Shown here in pieces: positions 1,358-51,758 of a DNA stretch of 64,000 bases. The notes under the pieces are model-generated. The model ran no database searches. It was not told where the DNA came from and worked only from the letters and a program-made list of their open reading frames with translations. Location of the stretch: positions 28,053 through 92,052 of the forward strand of contig DAOUDK010000034.1 of assembly GCA_034431315.1 (NCBI GenBank). Reading direction: 5' to 3'. The translations under genes were made by a program, and so were the position numbers. The stretch's first letter is position 1. Each line of letters begins with the position of its first letter. The DNA is from Anaerolineae bacterium (GTDB lineage Bacteria; Chloroflexota; Anaerolineae; VGOG01).

Positions 1358-1978
1358 TCAGTCCTCTGCTATTGTAGCCCATCTCTTGAAAATAGCTGTT
1401 ATTGTCTCCCAACAGAGTCCAGCGTCGTCTATCGTAACTTGAATTTTCTCTTTGAAGACCGGATTAGATTGAATCGTGTGCAGAAAAGTATCCATGTACT
1501 TGGTCATCGCGAGTGCCATAAGCACATTGGCTAAATCATCTCGGTCCATCACTTTCACACGATCAGACACAGAATCTCTGGGAAGAGATTCTTTTTCCGC
1601 CAGGTAGAATACACCAGAGACGTAGTTGTACTGGCTCATCAATTCCTGATAAACCCGCAAATCATTTACGTACTCTACCACCGTGCCCATACCGGCGTGG
1701 CGGATGCCCCCAGGATCTAAGAACTGAATTCCCCAGAAGTGGTGACCAACGAGCGTGTCTTCTCCCACAACTTCGTAACCTTGTAGAAAGAGGGCCACAG
1801 GAAACAAAGCAGTGAGATCATCGGTGGATAGTCCAGCTATGCCCATTGCCAGGCACTGCTTGATCTGCCGGAGGTCTTCTACCAAACGTGAAGATGTCAG
1901 AAAAGGCTCTGTGTTTTCTGTCAGGCTCTGTTTCACCAAGCTATGAACTATATGTATGCCATTGCTGAGATCAACCAT
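1358..1978 (-). CDS. hypothetical protein (low-GC, no recognisable motif)
   Basis: Roughly 206-aa ORF in a distinctly AT-richer block (about 1290..2010), immediately downstream of the NACHT gene on the same strand; start assigned to the internal ATG (MVDLSNG...) because the listed first codon is TTG. Confidence 0.45.
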   Translation of the reverse strand: MVDLSNGIHIVHSLVKQSLTENTEPFLTSSRLVEDLRQIKQCLAMGIAGLSTDDLTALFPVALFLQGYEVVGEDTLVGHHFWGIQFLDPGGIRHAGMGTVVEYVNDLRVYQELMSQYNYVSGVFYLAEKESLPRDSVSDRVKVMDRDDLANVLMALAMTKYMDTFLHTIQSNPVFKEKIQVTIDDAGLCWETITAIFKRWATIAED

Positions 1979-2016
1979 CTTAAAGTTTCTCTTCTTCAAC
2001 TGCTACAGCCAAATAC

Positions 2017-4896
2017 TCATCGCACCAATACGCAGCGGAACCCAGTAGCACCGTGCCTTTGATTGCAAGGAAGTGCCTGGCGCATGATACACATGATCCG
2101 CCACCTTGTTAGAGCGTTGAAAGATCCGCCCCTGACCGCCCGGTCTTGGGGTGCTTGGGAATACTGCTCGCCGTAGCGCTTGAATTGGTCAGACGTCCAT
2201 TCCATCACATTCCCGGCCATATCCATCACTCTGAAAGGACTGGCTCCGGCAGGGTAGATACCCACAGGGGTTGTAGTGTACAAGTCGATGTTGGCACGGT
2301 CCTCTTCCCATGTCATACCCCAAGGCCACCAACGCCCGTCGCCACCCCGGGCAGCCCATTCCCATTCCGCCTCCGTTGGTAGGCGATAGAGGTGTTCCTG
2401 ACCAGTCTTTTCGGTCATATAGGCCGAGCGCCAATGGCAAAAGGCTTCTGCCTCGTACCAACTCACCCCCAAGACAGGATGGTTGGGCTTTCGAATGCCT
2501 AGCTCGTCGTGGTCCCAGTACGAGGGTTTTGGATCGGCTCCCCATCGCCACCGCCAGCCCTCCTCTGACCAGTATACTTCGTTGCTATATCCTCCGGCGT
2601 CCATAAACTGTTTGTACTGCCAGTTAGTCACGGGATAGCGATCTATCGTGAAAGCAATAACCCGCACTTTCTGTTGAGGGGTGGCGAGGGCCAGCATTCG
2701 CCGCAGATCGGGCCTATCACCAGCTTGGTGAATAATAGCCTCCGCCGCTGCTTCAGAAAGTCCCATCACCGACTCCCCTGCTGAGATTTCTAGCATCTCC
2801 CCAAGTCGAGGATCCCCAACTTCACCCAGGACATCTCCCGCATCCCTTCTAATCTCAAAGCTTTCCTCAGAGGCACTGATGACGGCTATTAGGCCAGCAA
2901 GTACTTCATCTCTGACCTTAACTCTGACTGCACCACGACCGGCATCCCCGAGACATTCTCCGATGAGAATGAAGTAAGATCCCTTCTCCCTCGTTGGGCT
3001 GCCTTCTGCCGTCTTCAACATCGCGGTGAGCAAACCTTCCAACCGCGCGCCTCGCAAGAGGCCAGCCGTGAGTCGGATGCTCTCTCTCCAGCGGAGGTCG
3101 CCCATATGTTTACAGACTAATTCACTGGTGTTCGGCTGGTTGCACATATACTCAGCCGCCAGGAATTCCTCGAAGGTTTGATGGGGAAAACTGTATTCTC
3201 CACTTCCTCGCTCGACAAGCAGCCCCGTTTGCTCAGACACAATCTCGATAAAAGCGCGGGCTTGTTCCTGAGCTCTAATTCTGCTCAGGCCCTCGTGCTC
3301 TTGCAACCAGTCGGCAACGTGCTCCTCCAATTCGGAGCGGGGAATAGTGCTCCCAGGCTCCTGTTCGTGCATCCATAGAGCAATAGGCCCCAGGACGCCG
3401 CTAACGTAGTACCTATCGAACTGGAGTTCTTCGGGCGTTACTGGGCGGTCAGCCATGCTCCGTGCCCAATCCCAGGTCTCAACCAAGGCCTTCACGCACT
3501 CGCTGTATAGTTCGGCCCGATGGTGCGGTAAGTGAGCGCCGCGATAGTAATAGAGTAAGACCATGATAGCCAAGAGCAAAGGGGTTCTGGCCAAGTCAAA
3601 GACGCCGGGATTGCGAAAGATGGTCTTGAGCAAATCATCTGCCGACCCTGCTTCCCTGCCGAAGCCGTAGTTATGAAAGACTTCAAACCAGCGTTCCACA
3701 AAGGTACGAATCTCGTGCTTGGTGAAAGGGGCTATGGAGATAACAGCAAAATCCTTCTCCAGGGGAGCCTGGCGATAGCTGGCCGGACGGCTGGTTACGA
3801 TGAAGCGGTTCTTCGGATAGCGGACGACGAAATCACGGATGTGCTCTACAACCCCCCATCGCTCTCCAGTGGAGATGATCTCATCCAGGCCATCCAGCAA
3901 CACCAGACAGTTGCCTCGCTCCAGCTCATAATCAAAAAGTGGCTTCAATCCCCCTTGCCCACGTCCCCTGAAATACACAGGCAGATAGTCGGCCAGAGAG
4001 ATGTCTGGGTCGTCGCGTAGAGCCCTGGCGTAGGCAGAGACGGGAAATGGCAAAGGAAACCATATTCTGTCTGTAGCGAGCTCAATCCCTAACATATTTG
4101 TTACCGCCGTTGGGCCTCCAGCTAGGGCCAGGGCAATGTACCTCAACAGGGTTGTTTTTCCTGTACCAGGGTCGCCGAGCACGGCGACTTGCTTCTTGCC
4201 TAGGAGTAATTTCCTGAAATCCAGGGGCTCCGTCTGCCCTCGCTCTGCTGCCTCGAGTGGCTCCGGGGCGGGCAGGACAGACTCACTCTCGTATCTGATC
4301 CGCAAAGGGACAAAGAGCTTCGACAAAGGCAAGGAAACGAACTCTTTGAGAAACAAGAGACCCTGGAAGTCCATCTGTCCTTCGCGCTGGACGAGGTAAT
4401 TGAAGTAATATTCCCGTAGCTTATCCCGCTTGTGCCGTTCGGCCGCAGCTGTCTCGGCAAGAAATTCAAATGGGCCAGCAATGCAGCTCCAGAAATCGCC
4501 GGCCGTCATTCCCATCTTGGCTGCTATATCCGGCGGGACAAAGAACACGTATGAACAACCGAAGCGACGAAGAACATCCCGTTCCTGGTTCAAGCGGGCG
4601 ATGGCCAAGTCTCTTTCCTCGGGAGACAACCTGCTCCAACCCTCAACGAACAGAATGCCCGGACGTTCAGTCTCAAATGGTTCCTGCCACAAGTACGTAG
4701 CTACGCTGGGTTGGATACCGTCAATAGGCCAACTCTTGATCTCGAGTTCCTCCCGCAAGTCTGCAAAGAGATTGGCAATGATGGTATTCTCTAGCTCCCA
4801 GTCATCTACGATCACCACGATCAGGCTGCCTGCCTCTTCGTGGTGTCGCAATGTGTTGAGCAGCTTTTGGTATTCTTTATCAGCGACGAACGGCAT
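2017..4896 (-). CDS. NACHT-family STAND NTPase with unknown N-terminal alpha/beta domain, HEAT-like repeats and C-terminal FGE-sulfatase (formylglycine-generating-enzyme-like) domain
   Basis: 959 aa; Walker A GDPGTGKTTLL, Walker B LVLLDGLDEI typical of NACHT; central GDxLGEVGDPRL HEAT/PBS-like repeats; C-terminal region with YPVTNWQY...GVSWYEAEAFCHW...RLPTEAEWEWAARGG...GNVMEWT...RGGSF...GFRCV signature of the FGE-sulfatase (SUMF1) fold; start overlaps the stop of the upstream ATPase gene by 17 nt. Confidence 0.8.
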   Translation of the reverse strand: MPFVADKEYQKLLNTLRHHEEAGSLIVVIVDDWELENTIIANLFADLREELEIKSWPIDGIQPSVATYLWQEPFETERPGILFVEGWSRLSPEERDLAIARLNQERDVLRRFGCSYVFFVPPDIAAKMGMTAGDFWSCIAGPFEFLAETAAAERHKRDKLREYYFNYLVQREGQMDFQGLLFLKEFVSLPLSKLFVPLRIRYESESVLPAPEPLEAAERGQTEPLDFRKLLLGKKQVAVLGDPGTGKTTLLRYIALALAGGPTAVTNMLGIELATDRIWFPLPFPVSAYARALRDDPDISLADYLPVYFRGRGQGGLKPLFDYELERGNCLVLLDGLDEIISTGERWGVVEHIRDFVVRYPKNRFIVTSRPASYRQAPLEKDFAVISIAPFTKHEIRTFVERWFEVFHNYGFGREAGSADDLLKTIFRNPGVFDLARTPLLLAIMVLLYYYRGAHLPHHRAELYSECVKALVETWDWARSMADRPVTPEELQFDRYYVSGVLGPIALWMHEQEPGSTIPRSELEEHVADWLQEHEGLSRIRAQEQARAFIEIVSEQTGLLVERGSGEYSFPHQTFEEFLAAEYMCNQPNTSELVCKHMGDLRWRESIRLTAGLLRGARLEGLLTAMLKTAEGSPTREKGSYFILIGECLGDAGRGAVRVKVRDEVLAGLIAVISASEESFEIRRDAGDVLGEVGDPRLGEMLEISAGESVMGLSEAAAEAIIHQAGDRPDLRRMLALATPQQKVRVIAFTIDRYPVTNWQYKQFMDAGGYSNEVYWSEEGWRWRWGADPKPSYWDHDELGIRKPNHPVLGVSWYEAEAFCHWRSAYMTEKTGQEHLYRLPTEAEWEWAARGGDGRWWPWGMTWEEDRANIDLYTTTPVGIYPAGASPFRVMDMAGNVMEWTSDQFKRYGEQYSQAPQDRAVRGGSFNALTRWRIMCIMRQALPCNQRHGATGFRCVLVR

Positions 4897-6250
4897 CAGT
4901 CATGCGCTCCTCGGTCTCGACACCTTGCAATATCATGCGTACGATGGGGTGGAGGTCGTACCACACACCGTCGTTAACATAGCTCAAAATGTATAGGTTC
5001 AAGATAAGATTATCGCCAACCTCCGTACCTGAGCGCCGAGGGGACTCTAGGAATCTTTGCAGTTCCTCAAATTCGGTTCGCCCCAAAGGTCTGGAGTACT
5101 TGCGCTGTTCAGCATAAGCTGCTTTGCGCGCGGCCAGCAGATCAATCTGGCATTGGGATCTCACCTCAGCTTCGAGAATGGCGTCACGCATCAGAGCAAT
5201 AAGCTGTCGCATCACCCCACCACTCATCGCCACCAAAAGATCGAGCGCCTTAGGGGCAATCACATCTTCCGTCGCCATTCCCAAGCTTTGCAACCGCTTA
5301 TGCACAACCTGCTGCATGGTCTGCGAGCCCTTGTCATACCTGACATCCGGCTGGTCTTCCTCGTGGAGCTTGACGTTAGGAAACTCTATCGTGGGGAAAC
5401 GGCTCCGTACCTGGCTATAGTCAGGGTGATAGCAGAGTACAATGGGCGCAGTATAGATTGCTCGGCAGGGAGGAGTATGCAACACCCAGCTATCAGCGAA
5501 AAAGGCGCGCGCGTGAGCCAAATTGTCTACTTTGTCGAGACCATCCACGATTAGAAAAACCGGCTTACCCGCTTTGTCTTCCACATCGCGCACGATGGCC
5601 TGCACTCGCAAGATGACCTCTGAAAGCCTGGGACTCAGCTCCAACTTGCGCAGCATCTTGCCAGTAGCGCCAAGGGTGAACGGTGCGCCACTCGTCAGCC
5701 CATTGATCACCTTGCCAGCGGCAGTTGCTGCTACAGGCCCTCCTACCAACCCAATCCCAAAGCAGGCGATAGCGCCCAATATCTGGCTCACGTCTATTTC
5801 AAAGTCCTCCTTTTCTGTCTCTTCTCGGATCAGTGTAGTCAGACTCTTCTCTAGCTCATTACGCAATGCCTTATCTGGCTTGTTGGACAACCCAGCCTCT
5901 GCTATCTTACAAACTGCAAAGCCCATCATCGAGAGCACGTCAAGCTGGTTTAAGCTATGAATGTCCCCGCCTGCGCTAGTTTCCAAGTCCAGCCAGATCA
6001 CGAAGTATTGGTCCTGTATCAATTGAGCGAACTTGGCTAATTCCGAAGTCTTGCCACTGCCCCGGTGCCCAGTCAGCACAGTTTGGAGAGCGACCCGGTC
6101 AGGTCGCATTGCAAGCACTAGTTTCTCCAGGGGGCTGTCTTCCCGTTCCACAAAAAATGCTTCGAGATCATCTCCCCACAACGATTTCCACGGATCAAAG
6201 ACATTGTAAATCGGCGTCCAATATTGTCCGATGTTTTGTTGCTCTGCCAT
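4880..6250 (-). CDS. STAND-like P-loop ATPase (Walker A/B NTPase, no sensor repeats)
   Basis: Walker A GHRGSGKTSEL and Walker B FLIVDGLDKV; ATG at 6250 preceded by AAGGAGGAAG RBS (the ORF-track start at 6325 is probably too long); 3' end overlaps the NACHT gene start, consistent with translational coupling. Confidence 0.65.
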   Translation of the reverse strand: MAEQQNIGQYWTPIYNVFDPWKSLWGDDLEAFFVEREDSPLEKLVLAMRPDRVALQTVLTGHRGSGKTSELAKFAQLIQDQYFVIWLDLETSAGGDIHSLNQLDVLSMMGFAVCKIAEAGLSNKPDKALRNELEKSLTTLIREETEKEDFEIDVSQILGAIACFGIGLVGGPVAATAAGKVINGLTSGAPFTLGATGKMLRKLELSPRLSEVILRVQAIVRDVEDKAGKPVFLIVDGLDKVDNLAHARAFFADSWVLHTPPCRAIYTAPIVLCYHPDYSQVRSRFPTIEFPNVKLHEEDQPDVRYDKGSQTMQQVVHKRLQSLGMATEDVIAPKALDLLVAMSGGVMRQLIALMRDAILEAEVRSQCQIDLLAARKAAYAEQRKYSRPLGRTEFEELQRFLESPRRSGTEVGDNLILNLYILSYVNDGVWYDLHPIVRMILQGVETEERMTDAVRR

Positions 6251-6334
6251 CGACTTCCTCCTTGATTGATTGCAAACGTGCGTTAAGGTAGCATGCCTGG
6301 TGGCGCGATTAAGCTGCAAGCACACAGCAGGAAA

Positions 6335-6850
6335 TTACTTGGGCAACGGCGGCAGTTTCTCTGCTGGTATCTCGGTGATCTCAATCCCGTCATTATAAAC
6401 GGTAAAAGCTGGTCGGCCCAGCCGCACAAACTCGGTAGTCACGAATCGCTCACAATATGCCAGGTGCACCGGAGAAGGGCCCATGTTGGTAACGGTGAAG
6501 AATAGATAGCCTCTGTAACCAGGGTCGATGATCCCACCATTGTAGAGTAGCCCCTTGATGGCAAAATAGGAGCGCATTGACATCCGGCCTTTCATGTCAG
6601 AGGGTAAGTGCACCTTTTCCAAACCGTGAATCACTGCGCTGCGACCGACAGGGATCTCAAGACCACCATCGCGCTCGACGTCAATCTTGACGTATCCACC
6701 TTCTCGTTCAGGCAGCACCACGATGGCAGTTTTCCCGACCCTTATGTCGTAGGAAGCCCCCTTTAACACTTCAGGTGAGAAAGGCTCCAGTAAATTGCTT
6801 TCCATCGCTGCCCTTCGGATATCGGCGTCCAACAAAGTCTCATCTGCCAT
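6335..6850 (-). CDS. dCTP deaminase / dUTPase-superfamily protein (Dcd-like)
   Basis: 171 aa; GIIDPGYRG motif corresponding to the conserved (H/G)xIDPGWxG active-site loop of the dCTP deaminase/dUTPase beta-barrel; GGGAGGAAAAG RBS upstream of the ATG. Confidence 0.7.
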   Translation of the reverse strand: MADETLLDADIRRAAMESNLLEPFSPEVLKGASYDIRVGKTAIVVLPEREGGYVKIDVERDGGLEIPVGRSAVIHGLEKVHLPSDMKGRMSMRSYFAIKGLLYNGGIIDPGYRGYLFFTVTNMGPSPVHLAYCERFVTTEFVRLGRPAFTVYNDGIEITEIPAEKLPPLPK

Positions 6851-6932
6851 TTTCTTTTCCTCCCTGACTTGTTTTGTTGTCCAAGCGATTGAAAGGGCTG
6901 TTGCATCTTGCTGAGACGCAAAGCGTTACAAT

Positions 6933-7853
6933 TCAAGCCCAAGGACGGCCATACATCTTGATTCGCACTTCCCTAACGATCTCTTTGAGCTTTAGCTGAT
7001 AGTCCAGAGGCCCCTGCGGTACAATTATTCCAGTTGTGTAAAAATTTACCGGAATGGGCCTTTCCCGCTCGGCGTGGGTAAACAAAGCCTGATAGCCACT
7101 GTTGATGCTTCTGATTGATAGCAAAAACAGATCTTCTCTTTCTGCCGCCAAGTCACTGAAAACGGACATGAGCTGATTTGACCGCAGAAGCGCTCGCTGT
7201 TTCTGCGAGGGCAACCAGTCAGCTCCGAGAAGCGGCTCGACTCTTTGCCTGACAGAATCCCACACTTTTTCCTCCGGCAAGTCGCCCTTGACAATGTGGA
7301 TGTTCTCTGCAAATTGGCGCAGACGCTCCATCACCTCCAGGTAACGATTTTTCACCATTTGCAATGCTTGAGCGTTTTCAAAGAGCTCGTAGTGAAAGCC
7401 GCGACTGCTGGTGATACGCTTCATACAGGTTTCAACCGGCACGTCCAAAAAGATTGTCAGATCCGGGTGGATGCAGCGGTAGTTCAGTTGATATATCCAA
7501 CGCGTCTCAACATCAAGAGACTGATAAGCCAGCGACGACAGGTAGTAACGGTCGCAAACAACATGCCATCCGCTGGCCAGTCGGTGAGCGATGCCGTTGG
7601 TTCGACAGTAGAGGTGATCCAGCCGATCAGTGGCAAAGAGCAAGGCCAGTGTCTGGCGGTCAGCCTTCAGTCTTCCAGTGAGAATCGACCTGATTTGCGC
7701 ACCGGCTGGCCCCTGACTGGGCTCCTGGGTCAAATAGGCCACTCCTGTGGCTCTCGACAACCACGCCTGCAGCAATCGGGCTTGCGTGGTCGTGCCGGCG
7801 CCATCTAGACCCTCGATGACGATGAAACGCCCTGGCCCCTCGTTAAAGATCAT
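6933..7853 (-). CDS. thymidylate kinase-fold protein with P-loop Lys->Thr substitution and about 100-aa C-terminal extension
   Basis: 306 aa; IVIEGLDGAGTTTQ (canonical Tmk is GxDGAGKTT), CDRYYLSSLAYQ (DRY motif), REPSQGPAGAQIR (LID-like); GGGGAAGG RBS. Confidence 0.7.
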   Translation of the reverse strand: MIFNEGPGRFIVIEGLDGAGTTTQARLLQAWLSRATGVAYLTQEPSQGPAGAQIRSILTGRLKADRQTLALLFATDRLDHLYCRTNGIAHRLASGWHVVCDRYYLSSLAYQSLDVETRWIYQLNYRCIHPDLTIFLDVPVETCMKRITSSRGFHYELFENAQALQMVKNRYLEVMERLRQFAENIHIVKGDLPEEKVWDSVRQRVEPLLGADWLPSQKQRALLRSNQLMSVFSDLAAEREDLFLLSIRSINSGYQALFTHAERERPIPVNFYTTGIIVPQGPLDYQLKLKEIVREVRIKMYGRPWA

Positions 7854-7861
7854 GCCTTCCC

Positions 7862-8494
7862 CTACCTCATGAGGTCAGTCACATGCCTCTTGATGTCCCG
7901 TGCAATCGCTGCGGCAGGCCGGTTGCCCTTGATGATAACGATCTTTTCTCCCTCCACGCGCAGCGACTCTATGGTCATCAGGTAATTTTCCCGCACTTTT
8001 TTAAGTCTTTTACGTTCTTGTTCAAGTTTGTCAGCTATATACGAGTTGGTTTTGACTAGGGTCTCCAAGTAAGCGTTGATTGGCGTGTCTAGGAAAAGAG
8101 TCAGATCGGGCTGGCGACACTCGGCGTTGATCCAACGCAGCCACTTCGAGTCGGAATGAAGGGCCTGGTAGGCGAGAGAAGAGAGGTAGTAGCGCAGGCA
8201 AATCACGTGCTCTTCCAACACCAAGCGCGCGAGGATACCCCCGTTCTTGTTCAGATGGTCCATCCGGTCGGTGGCAAAGAAGAGCGCCAGGGTCACCTCG
8301 TCTACGTCCAGTCGCCCATCCAGGATGAAGCGAATCTGGGAGCCAAAGGGCCCGTCGCTGGGCTCGCGGGTGAGATGTACCTTTAGTCTTTCCTCCCGCA
8401 GCCATCCATATAGCCTCTCCCCTTGCTCCTCAAGTTCCTGGCTGTCAATACCTTCTAGCACGATAAACTTGCCTGGGGTAGGGGATTCTTGCAT
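7862..8494 (-). CDS. thymidylate kinase-fold protein with fully degenerate P-loop (pseudokinase-like)
   Basis: 210 aa; FIVLEGIDSQELEEQ replaces the P-loop; CLRYYLSSLAYQA retained; stop of upstream gene 3 nt before its ATG. Confidence 0.65.
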   Translation of the reverse strand: MQESPTPGKFIVLEGIDSQELEEQGERLYGWLREERLKVHLTREPSDGPFGSQIRFILDGRLDVDEVTLALFFATDRMDHLNKNGGILARLVLEEHVICLRYYLSSLAYQALHSDSKWLRWINAECRQPDLTLFLDTPINAYLETLVKTNSYIADKLEQERKRLKKVRENYLMTIESLRVEGEKIVIIKGNRPAAAIARDIKRHVTDLMR

Positions 8495-8497
8495 GCC

Positions 8498-9157
8498 TCA
8501 CTCCTCTGCTGATGACTCACTTGAGCGAAAAATGATCGGGGCAATGAGCTTTACAGTCTGCTGATGGGTTGATTCCATCGAGCCAGAACTATTCACAATT
8601 TGAATATCTTCCTTCCTCTCATCTCGCAATAGGGGAATAATCCGATTGAACTGCATGCTGACCCTCCTGAGTATCTCTGGCCGTTCATATCGCTCTGGTT
8701 CGAACTTTCGCCGGATGCGTTCCATACATACCTCAGGCGGAGATTGCAAAAAGATGGTTAGATCAGGCCGCCAGTTGCGGGCGTTGAGTTGCCACAGCCA
8801 ATCCCAGCCATCTGGCAACAAATGAGACTGGTAAGCCAGGAAGGAAAGATAGTACCTATCACAAATCACATGAATGCCAGCCTCCAGCCTGGGTAGTATA
8901 AAGCGATCCAGGTGGTCTGCCCGATCGGCTGCGAAGAGAAGAGCGAGCGCTTCCTCGCCGATATTCAGTCTGCCCTGCAGGGCATGTCGTATCTCGGTCC
9001 CGGCAGGGCCCTGGCTAGGCTCGGCAGTGAAAGCAACGCGATGCATATCACAGCCACTTCGCCTCAGCCACTCGCGTAGCATCTCAACCTGTTCCGTCAG
9101 GCCAGAACCATCCAGCCCGTCGAAGGTGATGAATTTACCTCTCGATATATCTGCCAT
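8498..9157 (-). CDS. thymidylate kinase-fold protein with P-loop Lys->Leu substitution
   Basis: FITFDGLDGSGLTEQ (K replaced by L), CDRYYLSFLAYQS; start placed at the ATG (MADISRGKF...) 12 nt inside the listed GTG start at 9169; either start is possible. Confidence 0.6.
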   Translation of the reverse strand: MADISRGKFITFDGLDGSGLTEQVEMLREWLRRSGCDMHRVAFTAEPSQGPAGTEIRHALQGRLNIGEEALALLFAADRADHLDRFILPRLEAGIHVICDRYYLSFLAYQSHLLPDGWDWLWQLNARNWRPDLTIFLQSPPEVCMERIRRKFEPERYERPEILRRVSMQFNRIIPLLRDERKEDIQIVNSSGSMESTHQQTVKLIAPIIFRSSESSAEE

Positions 9158-9296
9158 ACTCTCGCTCACCCTGTGGCCATTGGCGTTGCTTCATCCGCAC
9201 CGGCAAAGTATCCTCCATGTAGAACCCTATCAACCGTGCTGCTGCGGCAGGCCGCACGGAAAAGTTCACCATCCCATATCTACTCGGGACGCTACC

Positions 9297-9325
9297 ATTA
9301 TACAACATTATCCCCAAATTGCCAA
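9297..9325 (-). promoter_or_regulatory. sigma70-like promoter candidate for the tmk-like/dcd/STAND cluster
   Basis: On minus strand: TTGGCA - 17 nt - TATAAT, about 130 nt upstream of the first tmk-like start. Confidence 0.4.
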
Positions 9326-9449
9326 ACACCAATATGAAAATCTCATTCAGATAGACACGGAAACGGAGTGAAAGGCGGAAGGCCGGATAAGCGCCTGACA
9401 CCGAAAGCGTCCTCTGCGTCGAACGGGGGCAGATGGATGACACCGGCTT

Positions 9450-9478
9450 TGTACAATCTGATGGAAATGGAGTATAAT
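9450..9478 (+). promoter_or_regulatory. sigma70-like promoter candidate for ATP-cone/uridine-kinase-like gene
   Basis: TGTACA - 17 nt - TATAAT, about 60 nt upstream of ATG 9538 which has a GGGAGAGAGGGA RBS. Confidence 0.4.
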
Positions 9479-9537
9479 TGTGGCTACATTCCCGAAAGCT
9501 GAAGCGGTGATGCCAGAGTGGGAGAGAGGGATACGAT

Positions 9538-10896
9538 ATGGCGAAGATTAAACAAGTAGTCAAGCGAACAGGGGCTGTGGTGCCCTTTAAGAAAGAGCGC
9601 ATCACCAACGCTATCTATCGAGCAGCGGTGGCCGTGGGCGGCCGCGACCGGTCCGTCGCAGAGCGGCTGGCCGACCAGGTCGTGGCTATGCTGGAGGAGA
9701 TCACGCCGCCAGGCCACATCCCCACCGTCGAGGAGATCCAGGACATCGCCGAGAAGGTGTTGATTGAGAACGGCCACGCCAGAACAGCCAAGGCCTTCAT
9801 CCTATACCGCGACGAACGGGCCCGTCGGCGGCGGGAGCGGGCCGAGCGCTCAGCCCATCCCTCCAAGAATATCCCCTGGCACAAGCTCTGGGAGGTGCTC
9901 AACTGGGCCGTTGATCACGACCTCCACACCGTCGAGCGCCTGAACGAGCGCATCGCCCAGGGCGAGTTCCCGGAGATCGTACGGGAAACCGATCGGGCCT
10001 ACAACGAGGACATCACCACCGCGTCGGAGGTGATCGGTGAGCGCCGGGACAGCGTAAAGATTGTCATCATCGCCGGGCCCTCCTCCTCTGGCAAGACTAC
10101 CACGACCATCAAGCTCAGCCATCTGCTGACGAAGATGGGCCTCAGCCTGGTCCCGCTCACTGTTGACAACTACTACCTCGACCTGGAACTCCATCCCAAA
10201 GACGAGTACGGAGATTACGACTTTGAGACGCCCCAGGCTCTCGATCTGGAACTCATTAACGAGCACCTGGCACGCCTGATCGCCGGGGAGGAGGTGTGGA
10301 TTCCGCTCTACGACTTCAAAACCGGCAAGCGGCACGACGCCCAGGCTCCCATGCGGGTCGGGCCCGACGACGTTATCCTCATTGATAGCCTGCACGGCTT
10401 GTTCGCCGACATGACGCGGAGCGTGGACGATGAATTGAAGTTCAAGCTGTACATCGAACCGTTGCTGCAAATGAAGGGGCCTGATGGGAAATTCGTTCGC
10501 TGGACAGACCTGCGGTTGATGCGCCGCATGGTCCGCGACGCCACTCACCGCGCCTACAAACCACAGCAGACGCTGGAACACTGGCATTACGTTCGCAGCA
10601 GCGAGATGCGCCACATCATCCCCTACGTCAACACGACCGACTACATCGTCAACAGCGGCCTGCCGTACGAACTCCCTGTCATGCGGGCCAGGATGTTCGG
10701 CCATTTCGAGGAGTGGGTGGAACAGTACAGGGACGATCCGCTGCGCGAAGATGCTTCCACGCGCGCCGAGCGCGTGTATCATCTTCTGAAGTCCGTCACC
10801 CCGGTCGAGGACGATGGCCGGCCTACGGGCGGCTCGGCCATACCGCCCGACTCGCTCCTGCGGGAGTTCATCGGCGGCAGTTGCTACGAGTATTGA
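9538..10896 (+). CDS. ATP-cone domain fused to uridine kinase/phosphoribulokinase-family P-loop kinase
   Basis: N-terminal approx. 90 aa match ATP-cone (KVVKRTGAVVPFKKERITNAI...); central IIAGPSSSGKTTT Walker A and LIDSLHGLF of the Udk/PRK family; stop overlaps start of next gene (TGATG). Confidence 0.7.
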   Translation: MAKIKQVVKRTGAVVPFKKERITNAIYRAAVAVGGRDRSVAERLADQVVAMLEEITPPGHIPTVEEIQDIAEKVLIENGHARTAKAFILYRDERARRRRERAERSAHPSKNIPWHKLWEVLNWAVDHDLHTVERLNERIAQGEFPEIVRETDRAYNEDITTASEVIGERRDSVKIVIIAGPSSSGKTTTTIKLSHLLTKMGLSLVPLTVDNYYLDLELHPKDEYGDYDFETPQALDLELINEHLARLIAGEEVWIPLYDFKTGKRHDAQAPMRVGPDDVILIDSLHGLFADMTRSVDDELKFKLYIEPLLQMKGPDGKFVRWTDLRLMRRMVRDATHRAYKPQQTLEHWHYVRSSEMRHIIPYVNTTDYIVNSGLPYELPVMRARMFGHFEEWVEQYRDDPLREDASTRAERVYHLLKSVTPVEDDGRPTGGSAIPPDSLLREFIGGSCYEY

Positions 10897-11723
10897 TGAC
10901 ATTTTTAGAGAACACCCACGTCGAAATCATCAACCCCCACGTCCCGCGCGGCCGCATCCGCCACGCCCTGTTCGATTTCGACGGCACGGTGTCGCTCATC
11001 CGCGAGGGCTGGCAGGGGGTGATGATCCCTATGATGGTCGAGGTGCTGTTGCAGACGCCCAAGCACGAAGGCGAAGCCGAATTGCGCACTCTCGTCACCG
11101 AGTTCGTGGACCAGTTGACGGGCAAGCAAACCATCTATCAGATGATCCAGCTTTGCGAGGAGGTGCGGCAGCGTGGGGGGGAGCCGCTGGATCCCCTGGA
11201 GTACAAATGGATGTACCTGGATCGGCTATGGGAGCGCATCGAGGGGCGCGTGGCCGGGCTGAAGAGCGGCCAAATCGAGCCGGAAGAGATGATGGTGCCC
11301 GGAGCGGTGCCGATGCTGGAGGCCCTGCGTGCTCGTGGCGTTTCTTGCTATTTGGCTTCAGGTACTGACGAGGTCTACGTGCTGGATGAGGCGGCGGCCC
11401 TGGGACTGTCGTCCTACTTTGCCAGCATCTACGGCGCGCTGGACGATTACCAGAATTACTCCAAGAGGATGGTCATTGAGCGCATCCTCGCCGAGAACCG
11501 TATGAGCGGCCCCGAACTTGTGACCTTTGGCGATGGCTATGTGGAGATCGAGGACACCAGGGCCGTGGGCGGCATTGCCGTGGGGGTCGCTTCCGACGAG
11601 GTCAACCGCCAGGGGATCAACGAATGGAAGCGGAGGCGGCTGATCGAGGCTGGGGCCGACCTCATCATCCCCGACTTTCGTCAGCACGAGTGCTTGATGA
11701 CCTATCTGTTTGGGTCTGGCTAA
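10896..11723 (+). CDS. HAD-superfamily hydrolase (phosphatase)
   Basis: FDFDGTV motif I (DxDGT) about 25 aa from N-terminus, C-terminal GDG..D motif; ATG overlapping upstream stop by 1 nt. Confidence 0.65.
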   Translation: MTFLENTHVEIINPHVPRGRIRHALFDFDGTVSLIREGWQGVMIPMMVEVLLQTPKHEGEAELRTLVTEFVDQLTGKQTIYQMIQLCEEVRQRGGEPLDPLEYKWMYLDRLWERIEGRVAGLKSGQIEPEEMMVPGAVPMLEALRARGVSCYLASGTDEVYVLDEAAALGLSSYFASIYGALDDYQNYSKRMVIERILAENRMSGPELVTFGDGYVEIEDTRAVGGIAVGVASDEVNRQGINEWKRRRLIEAGADLIIPDFRQHECLMTYLFGSG

Positions 11724-11824
11724 AATCTGTGGAAGGTAGTAGCGACTTCAGTCGCTTGGAACGACTAAAGTCGTCACTACCACAAGTTTAAGCCACACCC
11801 TATCTGTTTGCGGAGGATTGACCA

Positions 11825-12781
11825 ATGCTCTACCCCCTTTTCGACCGGAGCAAGCTGAAACTCAGATCTTTGTCGGAGCGAGTGCACGACATGGCTTTGG
11901 CCGAGGTCTTGAACCTGGACGACGATGTTCTACCCTTTGACGACCCCGGCCTGGATCAAGTGGCCGAGCGCGTGACGCAAGCGCATCAGGCCGGAGCTCA
12001 GGTGATCATGATGATGGGCGCGCACGTCATCAAGCGCGGCCTGTCGCGTTTCGTCGTTGACCTGATGGAGCGGGGCATCATCACCCATGTCGGCATGAAC
12101 GGCGCCGGGCCCATCCACGATTTCGAGCTGGCCCTCATCGGCGCGACCACCGAGAGCGTGGCCCGCTACATCCAGGAAGGGCAGTTCGGGCTGTGGGAGG
12201 AGACCGGCCGCCTCAATGAGGCCATCCGGCAGGGGGCGTGCGATGGCCTGGGGCTGGGCGAGGCGGTCGGGCGGATGATCGAGGAGGAGCGATTCCCCCA
12301 TCGCGACGCGAGCATCCTGGCGGCGGGCTACCGGCTGCGGGTGCCGGTGACGGCGCACGTGGGCATCGGCTACGACATCATCCACGAGCACCCCAACTGC
12401 GACGGGGCGGCCCTGGGCGAGACCTCCTACCGCGATTTCCTGGCCCTGGCCCACAGCGTCTCCAATTTGCAAAACGGGGTGCTCCTGAACTTCGGCACGG
12501 CGGTGATGGGGCCGGAGGTCTTCCTCAAGGCCCTGGCCATGTCTCGCAACGTGGCTCACCAGGAGGGGCGGCGCATCAACTGCTTCACCACCGCCGTCTT
12601 CGACCTCGTGCACCTCGGCTCCTATCACCGCGAAGCGTCCAGGGCTGATGCGCGTTACTACTTCCGGCCCTACAAGACCCTCCTGGTGCGCACCGTCCAG
12701 GACGGCGGCGAGAGTTTCTACATCCAGGGCGACCACCGAGCCACGCTGCCGAACCTGTATCGCCTCGTTACCGAGAGATGA
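11825..12781 (+). CDS. hypothetical protein (possibly deoxyhypusine-synthase-like fold; uncertain)
   Basis: 318-aa ORF with protein-like composition; 4-nt ATGA overlap with downstream PfkB gene suggests an operon. Confidence 0.4.
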   Translation: MLYPLFDRSKLKLRSLSERVHDMALAEVLNLDDDVLPFDDPGLDQVAERVTQAHQAGAQVIMMMGAHVIKRGLSRFVVDLMERGIITHVGMNGAGPIHDFELALIGATTESVARYIQEGQFGLWEETGRLNEAIRQGACDGLGLGEAVGRMIEEERFPHRDASILAAGYRLRVPVTAHVGIGYDIIHEHPNCDGAALGETSYRDFLALAHSVSNLQNGVLLNFGTAVMGPEVFLKALAMSRNVAHQEGRRINCFTTAVFDLVHLGSYHREASRADARYYFRPYKTLLVRTVQDGGESFYIQGDHRATLPNLYRLVTER

Positions 12782-13848
12782 TGGACGAGAGACGCCTCGA
12801 CGAATTGCTGAACCGATTCCCTCACCTCCACGTGCTGGTGGTGGGCGACTTTTTTCTGGACAAGTACTTGATCATTGACCGGCGGCTGAGCGAGGTCTCG
12901 CTGGAGACGGGCCTGGAGGCCTATCAGGTCGTGGAGGTGCGATGCAGCCCCGGCGCGGCCGGGACCATCACCTCCAACCTGCGGGCACTGGGAGTCCAGG
13001 TCGCGGCGCTAGGCGTCATCGGCGACGACGGCGGGGGCTACGAGCTGAGGCGGGGCCTGGCGGAGAGGGGGGTGGACATCGAGTCGCTCATCCAGCGGGC
13101 CGACCTCTTCACGCCGACGTACACCAAGCCGATGGTGCGGGAACCCGACGGCCGGGAGCACGAGATCCAACGGCTCGACATAAAGAACCGTGCACCATTG
13201 CCGACGGAAGTGGAGGAGGAGGTCATCGCCCATCTGCGGGCCCTGGCGCCCAAAGTAGACGCGGTGGTCGTCGCCGACCAGGCGCAGGAGCGCAACTGCG
13301 GCGTGATCACCGACCGGGTGCGGGAGGAGATTGGGCGACTGGCGCTCCGCCATCCGGGCAAAGTCTTCGCCGCCGACTCCCGCGAGCACATCGGGATCTT
13401 CCGGCACGTTATCGTCAAGCCCAACCGACAGGAGGCAACCCTGGCCGTGCGACCGGATTGGAAAGGCGAGTTCACCCTGGAGGCGGCCAGGGAGTGTGGC
13501 GCGGAGCTCTTCCGCCGCAACCAGAAGCCGGTCTTCCTCACTGCTGGAGATCATGGCATCCTCCTGTTCACTGAAAAGGGATGCCAGCACATTCCGGCCG
13601 TGCCGGTAGAGGGCGAGATAGACATCGTCGGGGCGGGGGACAGCGTGATGGCCGGCATCGTGTCGGCCCTGTGCAGCGGAGCCGAGCCTGAGGAAGCGGC
13701 CTTGCTGGGCAACGTCGTCGCCTCCGTCACCATCCAGCAGATAGGCGCCACAGGTACGGCCTCGCCGGCGCAGGTGAGGGAACGATTTAGAACACGGATT
13801 CGCAGGATTGGCGGATTTCTACTCAGTCCGAGCTGTTTGATCCGTTAA
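12778..13848 (+). CDS. PfkB-family carbohydrate kinase (RfaE/HldE kinase-domain-like)
   Basis: VLVVGDFFLDKYL N-terminus and DIVGAGDSVMAG PfkB signature 2. Confidence 0.7.
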   Translation: MMDERRLDELLNRFPHLHVLVVGDFFLDKYLIIDRRLSEVSLETGLEAYQVVEVRCSPGAAGTITSNLRALGVQVAALGVIGDDGGGYELRRGLAERGVDIESLIQRADLFTPTYTKPMVREPDGREHEIQRLDIKNRAPLPTEVEEEVIAHLRALAPKVDAVVVADQAQERNCGVITDRVREEIGRLALRHPGKVFAADSREHIGIFRHVIVKPNRQEATLAVRPDWKGEFTLEAARECGAELFRRNQKPVFLTAGDHGILLFTEKGCQHIPAVPVEGEIDIVGAGDSVMAGIVSALCSGAEPEEAALLGNVVASVTIQQIGATGTASPAQVRERFRTRIRRIGGFLLSPSCLIR

Positions 13849-13944
13849 TCCTGCCCATCCGCTGTTCTGATTTGGAGAATTTGCCGAGAAGGGGTATAAT
13901 AGCCGCGAACCCTGCAAGGGACAAAATTCGAAAGGGGAGTGACG

Positions 13945-15994: not shown

Positions 15995-18900
15995 TGATGT
16001 CCAATAATGAAGCTGGCTCGCCCGGAGCTGGAAGCTCCGGGCTGAGAGAACAAAGCCCCCTTCGGGGGCTAAATTGCAGCCCGAAGGGCTTTGTTCTTTC
16101 AGCGTCGAGCTTTAGCTCGGCGCTCAACTCCGTTCTCCTGGGCCTCGGCCTGGGGCTGTATCTGAGCCGGATCATCGCTGAGGCGACGACGATAATCTGG
16201 CCCTGGCTGGCTTCGCTGGCTTTGATCATCGTGTGCAGCGTTATCGGAGTCGGGCTGGCTGCTCTTGGGAACCGCCACGGCTTGACGCTCACCCCCTTGG
16301 CGACGCTATACGCCTACGTCTTGTATCCTCGCATTGAGCCTATCCTCGCCTGGTCTGTGGCCTTCGTGGCCGTGACCGCCCTGGTCATCGCCAACGTCCC
16401 GCAGGCGTGGGAGCCTGCCCTGCTACAAAACCGTAAGGGCAAGCGATCCTTCCCTGTGGACTCCATCGTATTCGTCCTGGGCCTCGGCCTGTATGTGCGC
16501 ACTCTGGCCCCCACTGTTCTTCCGTCGAATAGTGGCGAGTTCCAGTTCGTGGCCGACATTCTGGGCATCGCCCACCCGCCTGGGTATCCGCTTTACACCA
16601 TGCTGGGCAAGCTTTTCACCTTGATCCCCGTCGGCGACGTAGCCTACAGGGTCAACCTGATGTCAGCCTTTTTCGCTGCCTTGACCCTGGCCCTGGTGAG
16701 CCGGACGGTGCGGCGTGCTACCGACTCGGCTTGGGGGGGCGTGGTGGGCGCTTTAGCTCTGGGCACGTCCACCACCTTTTGGGCGCAGGCCACAACTGCC
16801 AACACCCGAAGCTTGACGGCTTTTTTCACCGCCCTCATGCTGTTCGCCCTCGTCAGTTATGCTAAGGTAACCATCCAGCGAAGCTCCACCTCAAACCGAC
16901 AAGTAATGGGACGCAGATACACGCAGATTTCCGCAGATAAAAGGGAAAGTCAGCGTGCATCTGCGTTAATCTGCGTCCAGAATAGGGAAGTTTACCTCAT
17001 TTTGTTCGCTCTAGCTTTTGGGCTAGGGATCACCCACCACGGCTCCTTGGTCTTCCTGATTCTCCCCTTCGTAGCTTTTCTATTAGTGACCAAACTCGAA
17101 ACTCGAAACGGCTCGACTGAGCTCGCCGAAGTCTCGAAACTCGAAACTTCATCGTTTACCGGGCCTCGTCCTCTTCTGAAGCCTCTCCTCGCTTTCCTCC
17201 TCTCGCTGAGCGTGCTCCTCTATCTTCCCATCAGAGGAATCCTGGGTGCTCCCTTTGGTCCGTCCAACATCGCTACGCCGACCGGGTTCTTGAACCACGT
17301 CCTGGCCCGTGGCTTCCGGGGCGATATGTTCTACTTTGCCAGCTCCGGCCTCCTGCTTGAGCGATTCGCCGTGCTGACTAACATCCTGGATTTCCAGTTC
17401 AGCCTGGGTTTGCTCATTGCTGCCGCTTTGGGGGCTCTGATCATGCTGGGCAAAGACCGGCGGCTTTTGCTCCTCTGCGGTGGGGCCATAGCTGTTCAAG
17501 CCGTTATCGCTATTACCTATCGCGCCCCGGAGACAGTGGAGTATTTGATACCTGCCTATGTGCCCCTGGCCATCATCATTGGCTACGGCGCGGCGACGTT
17601 GGGCCGCTGGAGCAGGTTCAGAGCTCTTAATGCCTGTCTGGTGTCCCTCGTCATGTTGCTCGGTGCTATACAGTTAGTTAATCATTATCCCAGCTTCGCC
17701 TGGCTGAGCGAGGACCGCTCGACGCGCCAGTATGCAGAAAGTGTGCTGTCCGACGCCCCCCCTGAGACGCTGGTCTTGGCTAACTGGCACTGGGCCACCC
17801 CGCTGTGGTATCTGCAATACAGCGAAGGTGTGCGCCCCGACGTGGAAGTGAGGTACGTTTATCCGGAGGGCGCGGAACCGATCTCCGCTACCTGGCTGCG
17901 GCGTGTAGAGGAGAACGTGGGGGAGCGCCCCCTGATCGTCACCAATTATTATCAGGAGTTCGGCGTCACGCCGTATCGCTTCACTCCCGTGGGCGAGGCT
18001 TTTGCCGTATTCACTTCCAAGCTGGTGCAAAGCGAGCCAGCCCCCCTAACTTTGGGGGGGAAGCCTGGCGACGTCGCCAGACTTGACGCGACTTTCGAGG
18101 GCAAGATCAGGCTCTTGGGCTATCGTTTGCCGGAAGACAGGGTCCCCTCAGGTCAACCTCTGTACTTGGACCTTTACTGGCAGCCCATGGTCGAGCTGGA
18201 TGGCAACTACTCCTTTTTCGTCCACCTGGTGGGCGATGGCGGGCGAGTTCTGGGACAGATGGACATCGCTCACGATATGGCTGGCTTCAAAACAGGGGGG
18301 GGCTCTGTTGATCGCTACGAGATACAGGTGCTGCCCACGACTCCAGCGGGCTCTTACCAGCTCATCGCCGGCGTGTACATCACTCTCCCCGAAGGGGGCT
18401 GGCAACGCCTGACGACCGAGGAGGGCGGTGAGACCGTGCTCCTGGCCGAAGTGGAGGTAGTGTCACCTGCCCTGCCACCTGTCACCCTACACCCTCTACA
18501 TCAGCCCTTCGCCAGCGGGTTAACCCTGATCGGAGTTGATTACGACACTAGCCTGGAGGGCAGCCGGCGGGTCTATCTCCACTGGCATCGCTTCAGGGTT
18601 GACGACGGAGACTACGATGTGCTTTTGTATGCTAACGACGATGTGGTAGCCGGGAGCCGCCTGCCACAAGTGCCCCTGGGCACCTATCTCACCACGGCCC
18701 ACGACTTGCCGCTGCGTCCTGAGCTTGTCGAAGGACATTTGCAAGTGGAGCTGCGTTCGACCGACAATGTAGTAAGCCGGTGGCTGGGGCCTTGGCATTG
18801 GCCTGGGGGAGGCCGTTTGACCCTGCCGCCCCCGCCTCCGCGAAGCCGTTACGTGGACTTGGGAGGGGAGATGCTGCTGGCGGGTGTTGAATACCAGAGG

Positions 18901-51023: not shown

Positions 51024-51758
51024 TCAGAGCAACTTTAGTTCCACTGGGTCCGGCAAAATCTCCCCGGCCACGAGACAATGATGGCCGGTGAAGCCCTGGC
51101 AGACCTGGGGCACGTCCACAGTCAATGTCACGCCGAATTGGGCCAAAGCCCTGGCCAGGTGACAAAGGGGCAATCCCATAACGTTGGCGTAGCAGCCCCC
51201 GATACGCTCCACGGGGCTGAAGTCGTGGTGCTGGATGGCATAGGCCCCAGCCTTGTCCAGGGGATCGCCGCTAGCTGCGTAGCGAGTCATTTCCTCGTCG
51301 GAGTAGGCCCTCATCAAAACGGTACTCTCGGCCAGCTCCGTGATGGCCCGCCCCCCCCAGCCCCCCCAACCTTGGGGGGGAGAGAGGGGGGGCGCTGGCT
51401 GGTAGACCGTCACTCCGCTGAGGACGGTGTGCTCTCGTCCCCGCAATCGCCGCAGCATAGCTACAGCCTCGGCTTCATCGGCGGGCTTGCCCAACACGTC
51501 ACCATCCAGGGCGACGGTGGTATCGGCGGCGACGATCAGACCCCCAGGGTAGGAGGGAGCCACCGCCCTGGCCTTGAGCAGGCTCAGGCGGCAGACCATC
51601 TCCTGGGGGCTCTCTCCCTCTTCGATCTTCTCGTCCACATCGGCCGCCGCGGCTACGAAAGGTACGTTCAAGAGGGAGAAGAGTTCTCGCCGTCGCGGCG
51701 AGGCCGAGGCCAAAATCAATCGTTCTGGGATCAATCTATCTCCTCTGTGCTCGCTCAC
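51024..51758 (-). CDS. maf: Maf-family nucleoside triphosphate pyrophosphatase with low-complexity insertion
   Basis: ILASASPRRRELF signature; GTG start overlapping the upstream OYE stop (GTGA); insertion PPPLSPPQGWGGWGG encoded by a C7/G7 palindrome. Confidence 0.8.
   Translation of the reverse strand: MSEHRGDRLIPERLILASASPRRRELFSLLNVPFVAAAADVDEKIEEGESPQEMVCRLSLLKARAVAPSYPGGLIVAADTTVALDGDVLGKPADEAEAVAMLRRLRGREHTVLSGVTVYQPAPPLSPPQGWGGWGGRAITELAESTVLMRAYSDEEMTRYAASGDPLDKAGAYAIQHHDFSPVERIGGCYANVMGLPLCHLARALAQFGVTLTVDVPQVCQGFTGHHCLVAGEILPDPVELKLL

Follow-up and report, generated by a model that had tools for sequence, protein, structure and literature searches.

The described systems that come closest to the locus considered here are the bacterial NACHT/NLR-related FGS proteins (Kibby et al., bioRxiv 10.1101/2022.07.19.500537; PMC13581612; Kaur et al., PMC7159879), which consist of a NACHT module with Walker A and Walker B motifs, then a helical region, and an FGE/FGS domain at the C terminus. 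This combination of NACHT and FGS sensor has been documented among bacterial NLRs as an antigen-receptor-type architecture (bioRxiv 10.1101/2022.07.19.500537; PMC13581612). A protein of the same build is encoded in a seven-gene island at positions 1358-9169 of a 64,000-nucleotide stretch of contig DAOUDK010000034.1 from an Anaerolineae bacterium (we call the whole of this stretch the window), together with three proteins of the thymidylate kinase (Tmk) fold that lack the Walker A lysine (K-less Tmks), a Dcd/dUTPase-fold (Dcd-like) protein, a short STAND-related ATPase, and an orphan. Judged from its sequence, the island is best described as an NLR-type operon with an undescribed nucleotide-protein core. 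As to its role, we tentatively favor, at somewhat less than an even chance, the reading that it is an accessory conflict operon whose core would be a noncanonical pyrimidine-deoxynucleotide-binding module controlled by, or coupled to, STAND switches.

The operon matches none of the systems in PADLOC-DB v2.0.0, and our literature search found neither a described tmk/dcd/NACHT system nor a paper on PDC-M51; the terms thymidylate, Tmk, dUTPase, and dCTP have zero occurrences in PMC7159879, as have thymidylate and dCTP in PMC13581612. An earlier note on this DNA, made from the letters alone, had not recognized the island as a described system, and the searches agree with it. The likeness to the NACHT-FGS systems extends to the host, which belongs to a lineage of the filamentous multicellular type, and to the N-terminal domain of the protein, which is adaptor-like and also exists as a separate protein. 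The locus differs from those systems in that no enzymatic effector is recognizable at the N terminus and in that the gene is embedded with Tmk-like and Dcd-like genes.

The NACHT-FGE gene (2017-4896, minus strand; 959 amino acids [aa]) encodes, as the earlier note had also read it, a NACHT NTPase module (3682..4191, minus strand; PF05729, E 4e-11, residues 236-405), with the motifs GDPGTGKTT and LLDGLDE, and an FGE-sulfatase (FGS) domain (2029..2799, minus strand; PF03781, E 4e-44, residues 700-956), the presumed ligand-binding sensor. A HEAT repeat, named in the heading of the earlier note, was not found in this protein by Pfam at E<=0.01. The adaptor-like N-terminal domain (4417..4896, minus strand) is a homolog, over ~140 aa, of a stand-alone protein of 152-159 aa (hhalign probability 96%, E 3e-9), which is found in relatives of the island that have three ATPases. 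Reading of the sequence shows no CxxxxC catalytic Cys pair in the FGE domain. FGS receptors linked to diversity-generating retroelements (DGRs) differ from the window copy, which has no template repeat: the segment 2017-2500 is not repeated within the 64 kb, a reverse transcriptase gene not having been searched for. DGR diversification of the FGE domain was rejected on the missing template repeat and on the low ratio of nonsynonymous to synonymous change (omega, here 0.12-0.14). The described EruA is matched only weakly and in part (40 bits against a cut-off of 1000).

The seven open reading frames (ORFs) of the island follow one another on the minus strand, and the inter-gene spacings along the operon, 5' to 3', are 3, 8, 82, and 84 nt, a 17-nt overlap, and 38 nt. 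A promoter-like site (TTGGCA-17-TATAAT; 9297..9325, minus strand), which is a consensus match only, at 11/12 positions, stands ~130 nt upstream of tmk1 and is likely the start of the operon. Searched for riboswitches and other known RNAs, the operon and its leader gave zero Rfam matches at E<=0.1. The block is compositionally foreign. Its GC content is 0.530, against 0.593 in the rest of the window, and it is the lowest stretch of its length, every other 7.8-kb stretch having at least 0.570; GC at third codon positions (GC3) is 0.50-0.67 in its genes against 0.69-0.87 in flanking genes, and local GC falls to 0.474 at 1290-2010 and 0.461 at 8560-8700. The earlier note had given the same genes and spacings and the same AT-rich block and subsegments, and both the ORF listing and the windowed check of GC and codon usage bear it out. 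Purifying selection acts on each of the seven genes (omega 0.07-0.41, here and below estimated against two relatives).

The same gene order recurs elsewhere. In our comparison data, which consist mostly of metagenome-assembled genomes (MAGs) and metagenome contigs (loci numbered L001 and upward), the order tmk1-tmk2-tmk3-dcd-ATPase(s)-NACHT-FGE-orphan is found with 1:1 orthology in other Chloroflexota: in L013 and L014 at 70-82% protein identity, in L016, L047, and L048, and, at 35-55%, in L005 (identical with L017), L010, L018, and L049. The co-occurrence search that the earlier note had proposed thus returned the tmk-dcd-NACHT-FGE order at protein identities from 35 to 82%. In the 35-55% group, three paralogous ATPases and the 152-159-aa protein stand in place of the single ATPase. 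Dehalococcoidia-like and acidobacterial sequences commonly have a minimal form, in which a single K-less tmk precedes a Dcd-like gene, and the pairing is constant: the K-less tmk lies immediately 5' of the Dcd-like gene in 31/31 metagenome loci with upstream DNA and in 8/8 genome loci at >=40% identity. These comparisons support the view that the seven genes belong together as a single conserved accessory unit, NLR-type components included.

The orphan (1358-1978 from its ATG, minus strand; 206 aa) helps to show how the large form is built. It had been described as a low-GC gene with no family, and indeed it has no match in Pfam, NCBIfam, PADLOC, or PHROG; it is mostly helical, its omega is 0.38-0.41, and its AF2 model (pLDDT 45) is too poor for a fold search. 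Homologs stand after NACHT-FGE in L005, L013, L016, L047, and L049 and directly 3' of the Dcd-like gene in L011, L021, L022, L070-73, L076, and L078. By this distribution, the orphan belongs to the core cassette, and since it directly follows the Dcd-like gene in minimal loci, the STAND genes lie within the cassette in the large form.

This arrangement bears on the notion that two unrelated neighbors are involved, a Tmk/Dcd cassette and an independent STAND defense pair that are adjacent by chance. The short ATPase (4880-6250 from its ATG, or to 6325 from an upstream GTG, minus strand; 456 aa) has intact motifs (Walker A, GHRGSGKTS; Walker B, VDGLDK) and no sensor repeats, its family matches are generic or weak (AAA_16/KAP/ORC-like, nSTAND5, and a weak similarity to mad8), and it belongs to a large uncharacterized family (2169 representatives at E<=1e-3, 132 at E<=1e-30) whose members are mostly of stand-alone length. 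This size, and the existence of minimal Tmk/Dcd cassettes that have no STAND genes, speak for chance adjacency. The independence of the STAND pair was judged from the loci in hand, however, and in these the adjacency recurs across five or more lineages (35-80% identity), the genes share one strand with tight or overlapping spacing, the orphan as the last cassette gene stands downstream of the STAND genes, and in L018 a single repeat pair brackets the whole island. We therefore consider chance adjacency quite improbable.

Three of the components are the Tmk paralogs: tmk1 (8498-9169; 223 aa), tmk2 (7862-8494; 210 aa), which is the most degenerate, and tmk3 (6933-7853; 306 aa), all on the minus strand. 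They match Pfam Thymidylate_kin (PF02223) at E 7e-28 to 1e-42 (98-146 bits, cut-off 27), and all three exceed the cut-off of the NCBIfam dTMP kinase model (TIGR00041; 111-144 bits, cut-off 83.25). Alignment to the Tmk of Thermus and to orthologs at other loci puts L24 of tmk1 (GSGLTE), L21 of tmk2 (DSQELE), and T21 of tmk3 (GAGTTT) at the place of the Walker A lysine, the residue that in Tmk touches the beta and gamma phosphates of ATP, in keeping with the earlier note, which had seen this residue mutated in all three. Motifs of the dTMP site are retained to differing degrees, FxxDR and AYQ in all three, DRY in tmk1 and tmk3, and the TREP Arg only in tmk2. Thus, tmk1 retains DRY and FxxDR and has TAEP for TREP; tmk2 has a fully degenerate P-loop (DSQELEEQ) and LRY for DRY; and tmk3, with the P-loop GAGTTTQ, retains FxxDR, DRYYLSS, and AYQ and has TQEP for TREP. 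The Tmk domain of tmk3 (7233..7853) is followed by a C-terminal domain (6936..7232) of ~100 aa with an alpha+beta, TBP-like/KA1-like fold.

These replacements are not recent accidents. Each paralog's K-less loop is kept in 1:1 orthologs from loci that are merely 43-52% identical, which implies that the triplication and the lysine losses are old; the 1:1 orthologs of tmk1 in L013, L005, L010, L018, and L049 have GSG[LI]TEQ, and those of tmk2 bear DS[QE]x motifs. Omega is 0.23-0.26 for tmk1 and 0.16-0.18 for tmk2, and the three genes together span 0.14-0.26. Natural tmk2-tmk3 fusion proteins exist (P0034, P0036, and P0037), which argues for a physical hetero-complex of Tmk paralogs. Among the best 120 cluster representatives in a search with tmk3, 112 carry G[AS]G[T/S/A]TT and only 3 carry GAGKTT, so that tmk3 can be placed, from its loop and its relatives, in a large and strongly conserved K-less Tmk clade. 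In a neighbor-joining tree, one clade takes in tmk1-3, the single K-less Tmks from Dehalococcoidia and Acidobacteria, and a small number of K-bearing proteins, and canonical Tmks from the same genomes fall outside it; the source annotations name clade members "dTMP kinase." The Tmk paralogs are, by these signs of constraint, to be regarded as functional proteins. Of the term "pseudokinases" that the earlier note had applied to them, the loss of the lysine stands in all three; the label itself is plausible and at the same time unsafe, given the conserved K-less clade, the viral copies, and an omega of 0.14-0.26.

The viral copies come from IMG/VR, in which ten viral contigs (L035-L044; 11.6-452 kb, all but one being 84 kb or longer) encode a K-less Tmk (G[SA]G[TSI][TS]T). 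In L035, it adjoins a cytidylate-kinase-like gene and MT-A70-like methyltransferase genes, and in L044, it is the divergent neighbor of a Dcd that has the catalytic Glu. Cultured phages gave no K-less Tmk, all four INPHARED matches having the canonical lysine. The clade thereby spans Chloroflexota, Acidobacteriota, and uncultivated large phages, and if it were enzymatically active, the assumed indispensability of the Walker A lysine in this kinase family would be challenged.

Heteromers of Tmk paralogs have a precedent in PPK3, a polyphosphate kinase made from two Tmk paralogs, one of them noncatalytic and regulatory (PMC12995831). The likeness is that adjacent Tmk-fold paralogs are annotated as dTMP kinase; the difference is that in PPK3, the ATP-binding residues are kept and dTMP binding is lost (PMC12995831), whereas here the pattern is the reverse. 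The PPK3-related structural homolog (2plr/5h70, E 4.6e-11) is also a weaker match than ordinary Tmks (E 2e-19), and no ppx gene is found among the island's neighbors. Membership in PPK3 was rejected on the reversed residue pattern and the missing ppx neighbor.

The strongest rival to a conflict operon is that of housekeeping or regulatory nucleotide metabolism. It holds that the K-less Tmk is a real noncanonical kinase for dTMP (or a related dNMP) or a regulatory subunit of Tmk, that the Dcd-like protein is the lineage's dUTPase, that the operon tunes the supply of dTTP, and that the STAND genes either are unrelated neighbors or make developmental cell death in filamentous Chloroflexota, and not phage defense, dependent on nucleotide status. 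The scores above the NCBIfam dTMP kinase cut-off, the conserved dTMP-site motifs, the size of the K-less clade with its nested K-bearing members, and the viral copies, one of them next to a true Dcd, all lend it weight, as do the conserved positions of K-less tmk beside core genes and beside canonical tmk and the splitting of canonical tmk by the cassette in Dehalococcoidia-type loci; PPK3 adds the example of a heteromer with a regulatory subunit, though with the opposite residue pattern. Yet the lysine position is filled by T, L, I, V, or A among K-less Tmks, and the invariant columns of the alignment contain no conserved basic residue to compensate for it; an intact canonical tmk is present beside the K-less copies in L018 and L029; the Dcd-like gene is rare, and its relatives with transmembrane (TM) tails would be odd for a soluble housekeeping enzyme; and three paralogs, neighbors of the STAND, TIR, and PDC-S01 kinds, and a foreign composition are atypical of salvage genes. 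On balance, we find this reading rather doubtful.

The Dcd-like gene (6335-6850, minus strand; 171 aa) shows the strongest constraint in the island (omega 0.07-0.13). Its product matches Pfam DCD at E 2e-14 and PF00692 at 28.3 bits (cut-off 22), and with the dCTP deaminase model TIGR02274, it reaches 75.5 bits, under the cut-off of 92.8. The catalytic Glu of Escherichia coli Dcd, which we take to be E138 in VLEFYN, is replaced, the window protein having FFTVTN there; across 17 aligned family members, this position is T, N, or P. Motifs I to III are invariant in the family (S33, Y34, D35, R89, R93, G106, D109, P110, and Y112, with the motif III Asp in IDPGY), and the C terminus is divergent with a nearly invariant Y152. 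The loss of the Glu together with the retention of the motifs argues that the protein is a dUTPase-type nucleotide binder or pyrophosphatase and no deaminase, an assignment predicted from the residues. Its closest solved chains, 9ln0_A and 8y1w_A (155-156 aa; E 1.6e-22 over residues 19-154), are archaeal-type Dcd-like dUTPases deposited as "dCTP deaminase," of similarly compact size and with the same motifs, and they likewise have no Glu at the E138 position. Dcd-like proteins this compact and of this type function as dUTPases, the Pyrococcus enzyme being an example. The island family differs from these in its obligate pairing with K-less Tmk and in having relatives with coiled-coil and TM tails.

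It is here that the analogy drawn in the earlier note, to the antiphage dCTP deaminases, fails. The likeness to these enzymes (AvcD) lies in the theme of pyrimidine deoxynucleotides and in the company of a kinase-fold protein and a protein named dCTP deaminase. The antiphage enzymes, however, have a domain of the zinc cytidine-deaminase fold joined to a kinase-like one, whereas the island protein has the Dcd/dUTPase beta-fold with no catalytic Glu and scores below the deaminase cut-off, and the kinase-fold proteins here have no Walker A Lys. The PADLOC dCTPase model matches 0/7 of the island proteins; as a control, it does match a neighbor of the cytidine-deaminase fold in L024 (E 6.5e-22). 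The description of the island as a split and amplified antiphage dCTP-deaminase system falls with the fold difference and the loss of the Glu. A literal depletion model would have an active kinase and a dCTP deaminase, as a split form of the antiphage enzyme, convert or deplete the pools of dCTP and dTTP once the cell is infected. The matches to Tmk and Dcd at the family level, the invariant motifs I to III, which make a dNTP-pyrophosphatase role possible, and the standing of nucleotide depletion as an established defense strategy (PMC10511110) recommend it; the deaminase Glu missing from every family member, the Walker A Lys missing from all three Tmk paralogs, the difference in fold, and the lack of a PADLOC dCTP-deaminase match make it very improbable.

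The Dcd-like family is rare, with 26 clusters in the protein search and 14 loci in 185,579 species genomes, a search limited by its patterns. On viral contigs, a pattern scan confirmed zero relatives, and a hidden Markov model pass found the more distant, Glu-bearing Dcd of L044 (E 1e-14). Relatives in minimal loci carry a C-terminal coiled coil and two TM helices, intermediates carry the coiled coil only, and the window copy has neither. CBASS/Pycsar-type effectors consist of a ligand-binding domain and a TM part. The minimal relatives resemble them in that a coiled coil and two TM helices are fused onto a Dcd-like nucleotide-binding domain; the differences are the loss of the tail in the window copy, the absence of a signal-generating cyclase, and the other fold of the binding domain. 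The locus is, by analogy, most like an NLR-type multi-gene conflict system, and its minimal relatives are like an effector made of a ligand-binding domain and TM helices. Kongming (bioRxiv 10.1101/2024.12.20.629578) offers a further parallel, as immunity built around deoxynucleotide-converting enzymes and kinases and not around cyclases, but it relies on an active phage-encoded kinase, a host adenosine deaminase, and a SIR2 complex effector, none of which is found here.

Other partners are seen in variant loci. In L029 (9357-13199; Anaerolineaceae), an R3H/SpoIIIAA-like ATPase, a tmk2-like gene, a tmk3-like gene with the C-terminal domain, and an intact canonical tmk are followed, in this order, by a gene for a 454-aa TIR protein, whose TIR domain is C-terminal (ThsB-like, PDC-S66 models) and whose N terminus has a weak MazG-like match. 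In L081 (8200-10809), the gene next after that of a tmk2-tmk3 fusion (423 aa) encodes an AAA_14/DUF4143 ATPase with a match to the PADLOC defense candidate PDC-S01 (E 5e-144). A PIN/MazE pair and a Uma2 nuclease gene lie close to these two genes.

The relation of the cassette to the host tmk gene bears on its mobility. In L018, a Chloroflexota MAG, a 182-nt direct repeat (93% identical; 6181-6362 and 16787-16968) brackets the whole 10.4-kb island, and it corresponds to nt 1-182 of the intact canonical tmk located 3' of the island; no integrase is found within this island. This is what insertion into tmk would be expected to leave, and we take the bracket as its signature. Fragments of canonical tmk also flank the cassette in Dehalococcoidia-type loci. 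N-terminal pieces lie upstream of the K-less tmk in L051 and L059, and a canonical-Tmk C-terminal half of ~95 aa (LID and C terminus) lies directly 3' of the TM-tailed Dcd-like gene in nine loci (L012, 9745-10074; L051, 10796-11257; L057, L059, L064, L065, L068, L069, and L077). The junction is identical in 8/9, and the dN/dS of the remnant, 0.08-0.29 with saturated dS, indicates that it is maintained and not decaying. The cassette thus appears to be inserted in, or beside, an essential tmk gene.

Insertion has also touched the island itself. In L001, L004, L045, and L046, from lineages ~88% identical to the window, a DDE_5 transposase is inserted in the ATPase gene (at ~10.5-12.3 kb in L001 and 5.5-7.3 kb in L004) and leaves a 95-aa N-terminal fragment; the rest of the ATPase gene and the NACHT gene lie beyond the insertion sequence (IS) in L004, and other genes replace the distal island in L001. 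Against L047, dS varies several-fold across adjacent island genes, from 0.15 (NACHT-FGE) to 0.96 (tmk2), which suggests a mosaic history with recombination between lineages within the island.

From these relations, a bolder proposal can be framed, to which we give only a small chance: the cassette of K-less Tmk and Dcd-like protein (with the small helical protein) may be an unrecognized selfish or defensive element that targets host tmk and uses a pseudo-kinase and a dUTPase-fold trimer to sense pyrimidine deoxynucleotides, its ancestral form a nucleotide-gated trimeric membrane effector whose tail would have been replaced in Anaerolineae by an NLR-type two-ATPase switch. If this were true, disabled copies of nucleotide-metabolism enzymes would serve as bacterial immune receptors.

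The reading that we favor is that of an accessory conflict operon. Its accessory and mobile status is indicated by the low GC and GC3, the rarity of the Dcd-like gene, the L018 repeat bracket, and the IS in the ATPase gene, and its conflict flavor by the NACHT-FGS architecture, the TM-tailed Dcd-like relatives, the L029 TIR protein, and the PDC-S01 neighbor. The block would be a horizontally acquired operon for immunity or regulated cell arrest, with an ancient core of K-less Tmk, a trimeric Dcd/dUTPase-fold protein, and a small helical protein. The three Tmk paralogs, with the dTMP pocket kept and the lysine for the ATP phosphates lost, probably form a hetero-oligomer, which would bind thymidylate-type nucleotides without phosphate transfer, or would bind Tmk-targeting proteins, and would regulate the Dcd-like trimer, which in turn may bind or hydrolyze a pyrimidine dNTP. 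In the Anaerolineae lineage, two STAND NTPases would have been inserted into the cassette, namely the short ATPase and a NACHT protein whose N terminus is adaptor-like and whose FGE-type domain would bind a ligand, and this pair could act as an oligomerizing switch that senses a protein or ligand. The presumed outcome is that DNA replication or growth of the infected cell is blocked, and in simpler relatives, the output may run through the coiled-coil and TM tail of the Dcd-like protein (membrane damage) or through a TIR protein. Any single step of this scheme is, at best, unlikely to be right as drawn. If the island is a conflict system, it would extend bacterial NLR-type immunity by a new logic of input and output, with catalytically altered, enzyme-derived proteins that bind deoxynucleotides wired to STAND proteins, membrane tails, or TIR.

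Several findings weigh against a conflict operon. The components match no validated defense family, the PADLOC matches being confined to weak, fold-level ones to PDC-M51B/VakA (Tmk fold, E 1e-8 to 1e-19) and to others in the P-loop alone, and no toxic effector is recognizable in the window version of the operon. The FGE domain, at omega 0.12-0.14, is not hypervariable. The K-less Tmks of viral contigs, one beside a Glu-bearing Dcd, fit an ordinary enzymatic role in dTTP synthesis, and K-less tmk is widespread in Chloroflexota at conserved, housekeeping-looking positions (R3H-ATPase-tmk; HAL-tmk-Crp). The earlier note had counted universal conservation of the gene order next to core genes as evidence against its own view, and a part of this is seen, namely K-less tmk at conserved positions beside core genes in many Chloroflexota. 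In the window's genus, the island sits between an adenosine deaminase gene and an ATP-cone/PRK kinase gene, so that its flanks are nucleotide-metabolism genes, and it is inherited stably and in synteny at ~88% nucleotide identity, island and flanks alike. Faster divergence of the island than of its flanks was considered and rejected, both being ~86-89% identical to relatives.

A variant of the immune reading casts the K-less Tmk and Dcd-like proteins as bait: catalytically disabled copies of host Tmk and dUTPase that would serve to lure phage proteins or nucleotides specific to phages (such as dUMP or 5-hm-dUMP derivatives), with readout by the ATPase and NACHT proteins or, in variants, by the TM tail or TIR. 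Guarding of host proteins by NLRs has been discussed for bacterial NACHTs (bioRxiv 10.1101/2022.07.19.500537), and the pattern of a constant K-less Tmk with varying downstream partners (TM-tailed Dcd-like protein, TIR, STAND), the derivation of the paralogs from the Tmk clade, often at or within the host tmk locus, and the retention of the substrate pocket with loss of the phosphoryl-transfer lysine are as a bait would have them. The NACHT protein already has its own FGE sensor, however, whether a locus has 1 or 3 ATPases does not go with how many Tmk paralogs it carries, and K-less Tmk on phage contigs is hard to square with a host bait. An adaptor domain of the EAD (effector-associated domain) type, shared by the STAND proteins with the tmk3 C-terminal domain or the orphan, was looked for and rejected (hhalign probability <2%), and this, too, speaks against bait. 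We regard guarding of this kind as unlikely.

More distant Dcd-like proteins (26-35% identity), with TM and coiled-coil tails, occur in Acidobacteriota and Bacteroidota (L024-L028, ~9200-12400 in each). There, the Dcd-like-TM gene stands first in a conserved cassette, before the genes of a thymidylate-synthase-family protein (by Pfam in L024, L025, and L028) and, after it, a dCMP-deaminase-like protein (by Pfam in L024 and L025), the deaminase of L024 being the one that the PADLOC dCTPase model matches. Its neighbors are a C5 methyltransferase gene and a Vsr-like gene in L024, identified by eye, and an N6/N4 methyltransferase gene and a NucS-like nuclease gene in L025. From its gene content, this may be a second, undescribed pyrimidine-nucleotide cassette.

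Elsewhere in the window, ~3 kb at 10898-13913 (a HAD-like gene, a gene for a 318-aa protein, and a PfkB-like kinase gene) are missing from the otherwise collinear L001 and L004. The single tRNA called in the window, tRNA-Asn (GTT), lies far from the island at 52912-52987 on the minus strand, and its coordinates fall within a minus-strand ORF (51755-53026) of the mechanical ORF list.

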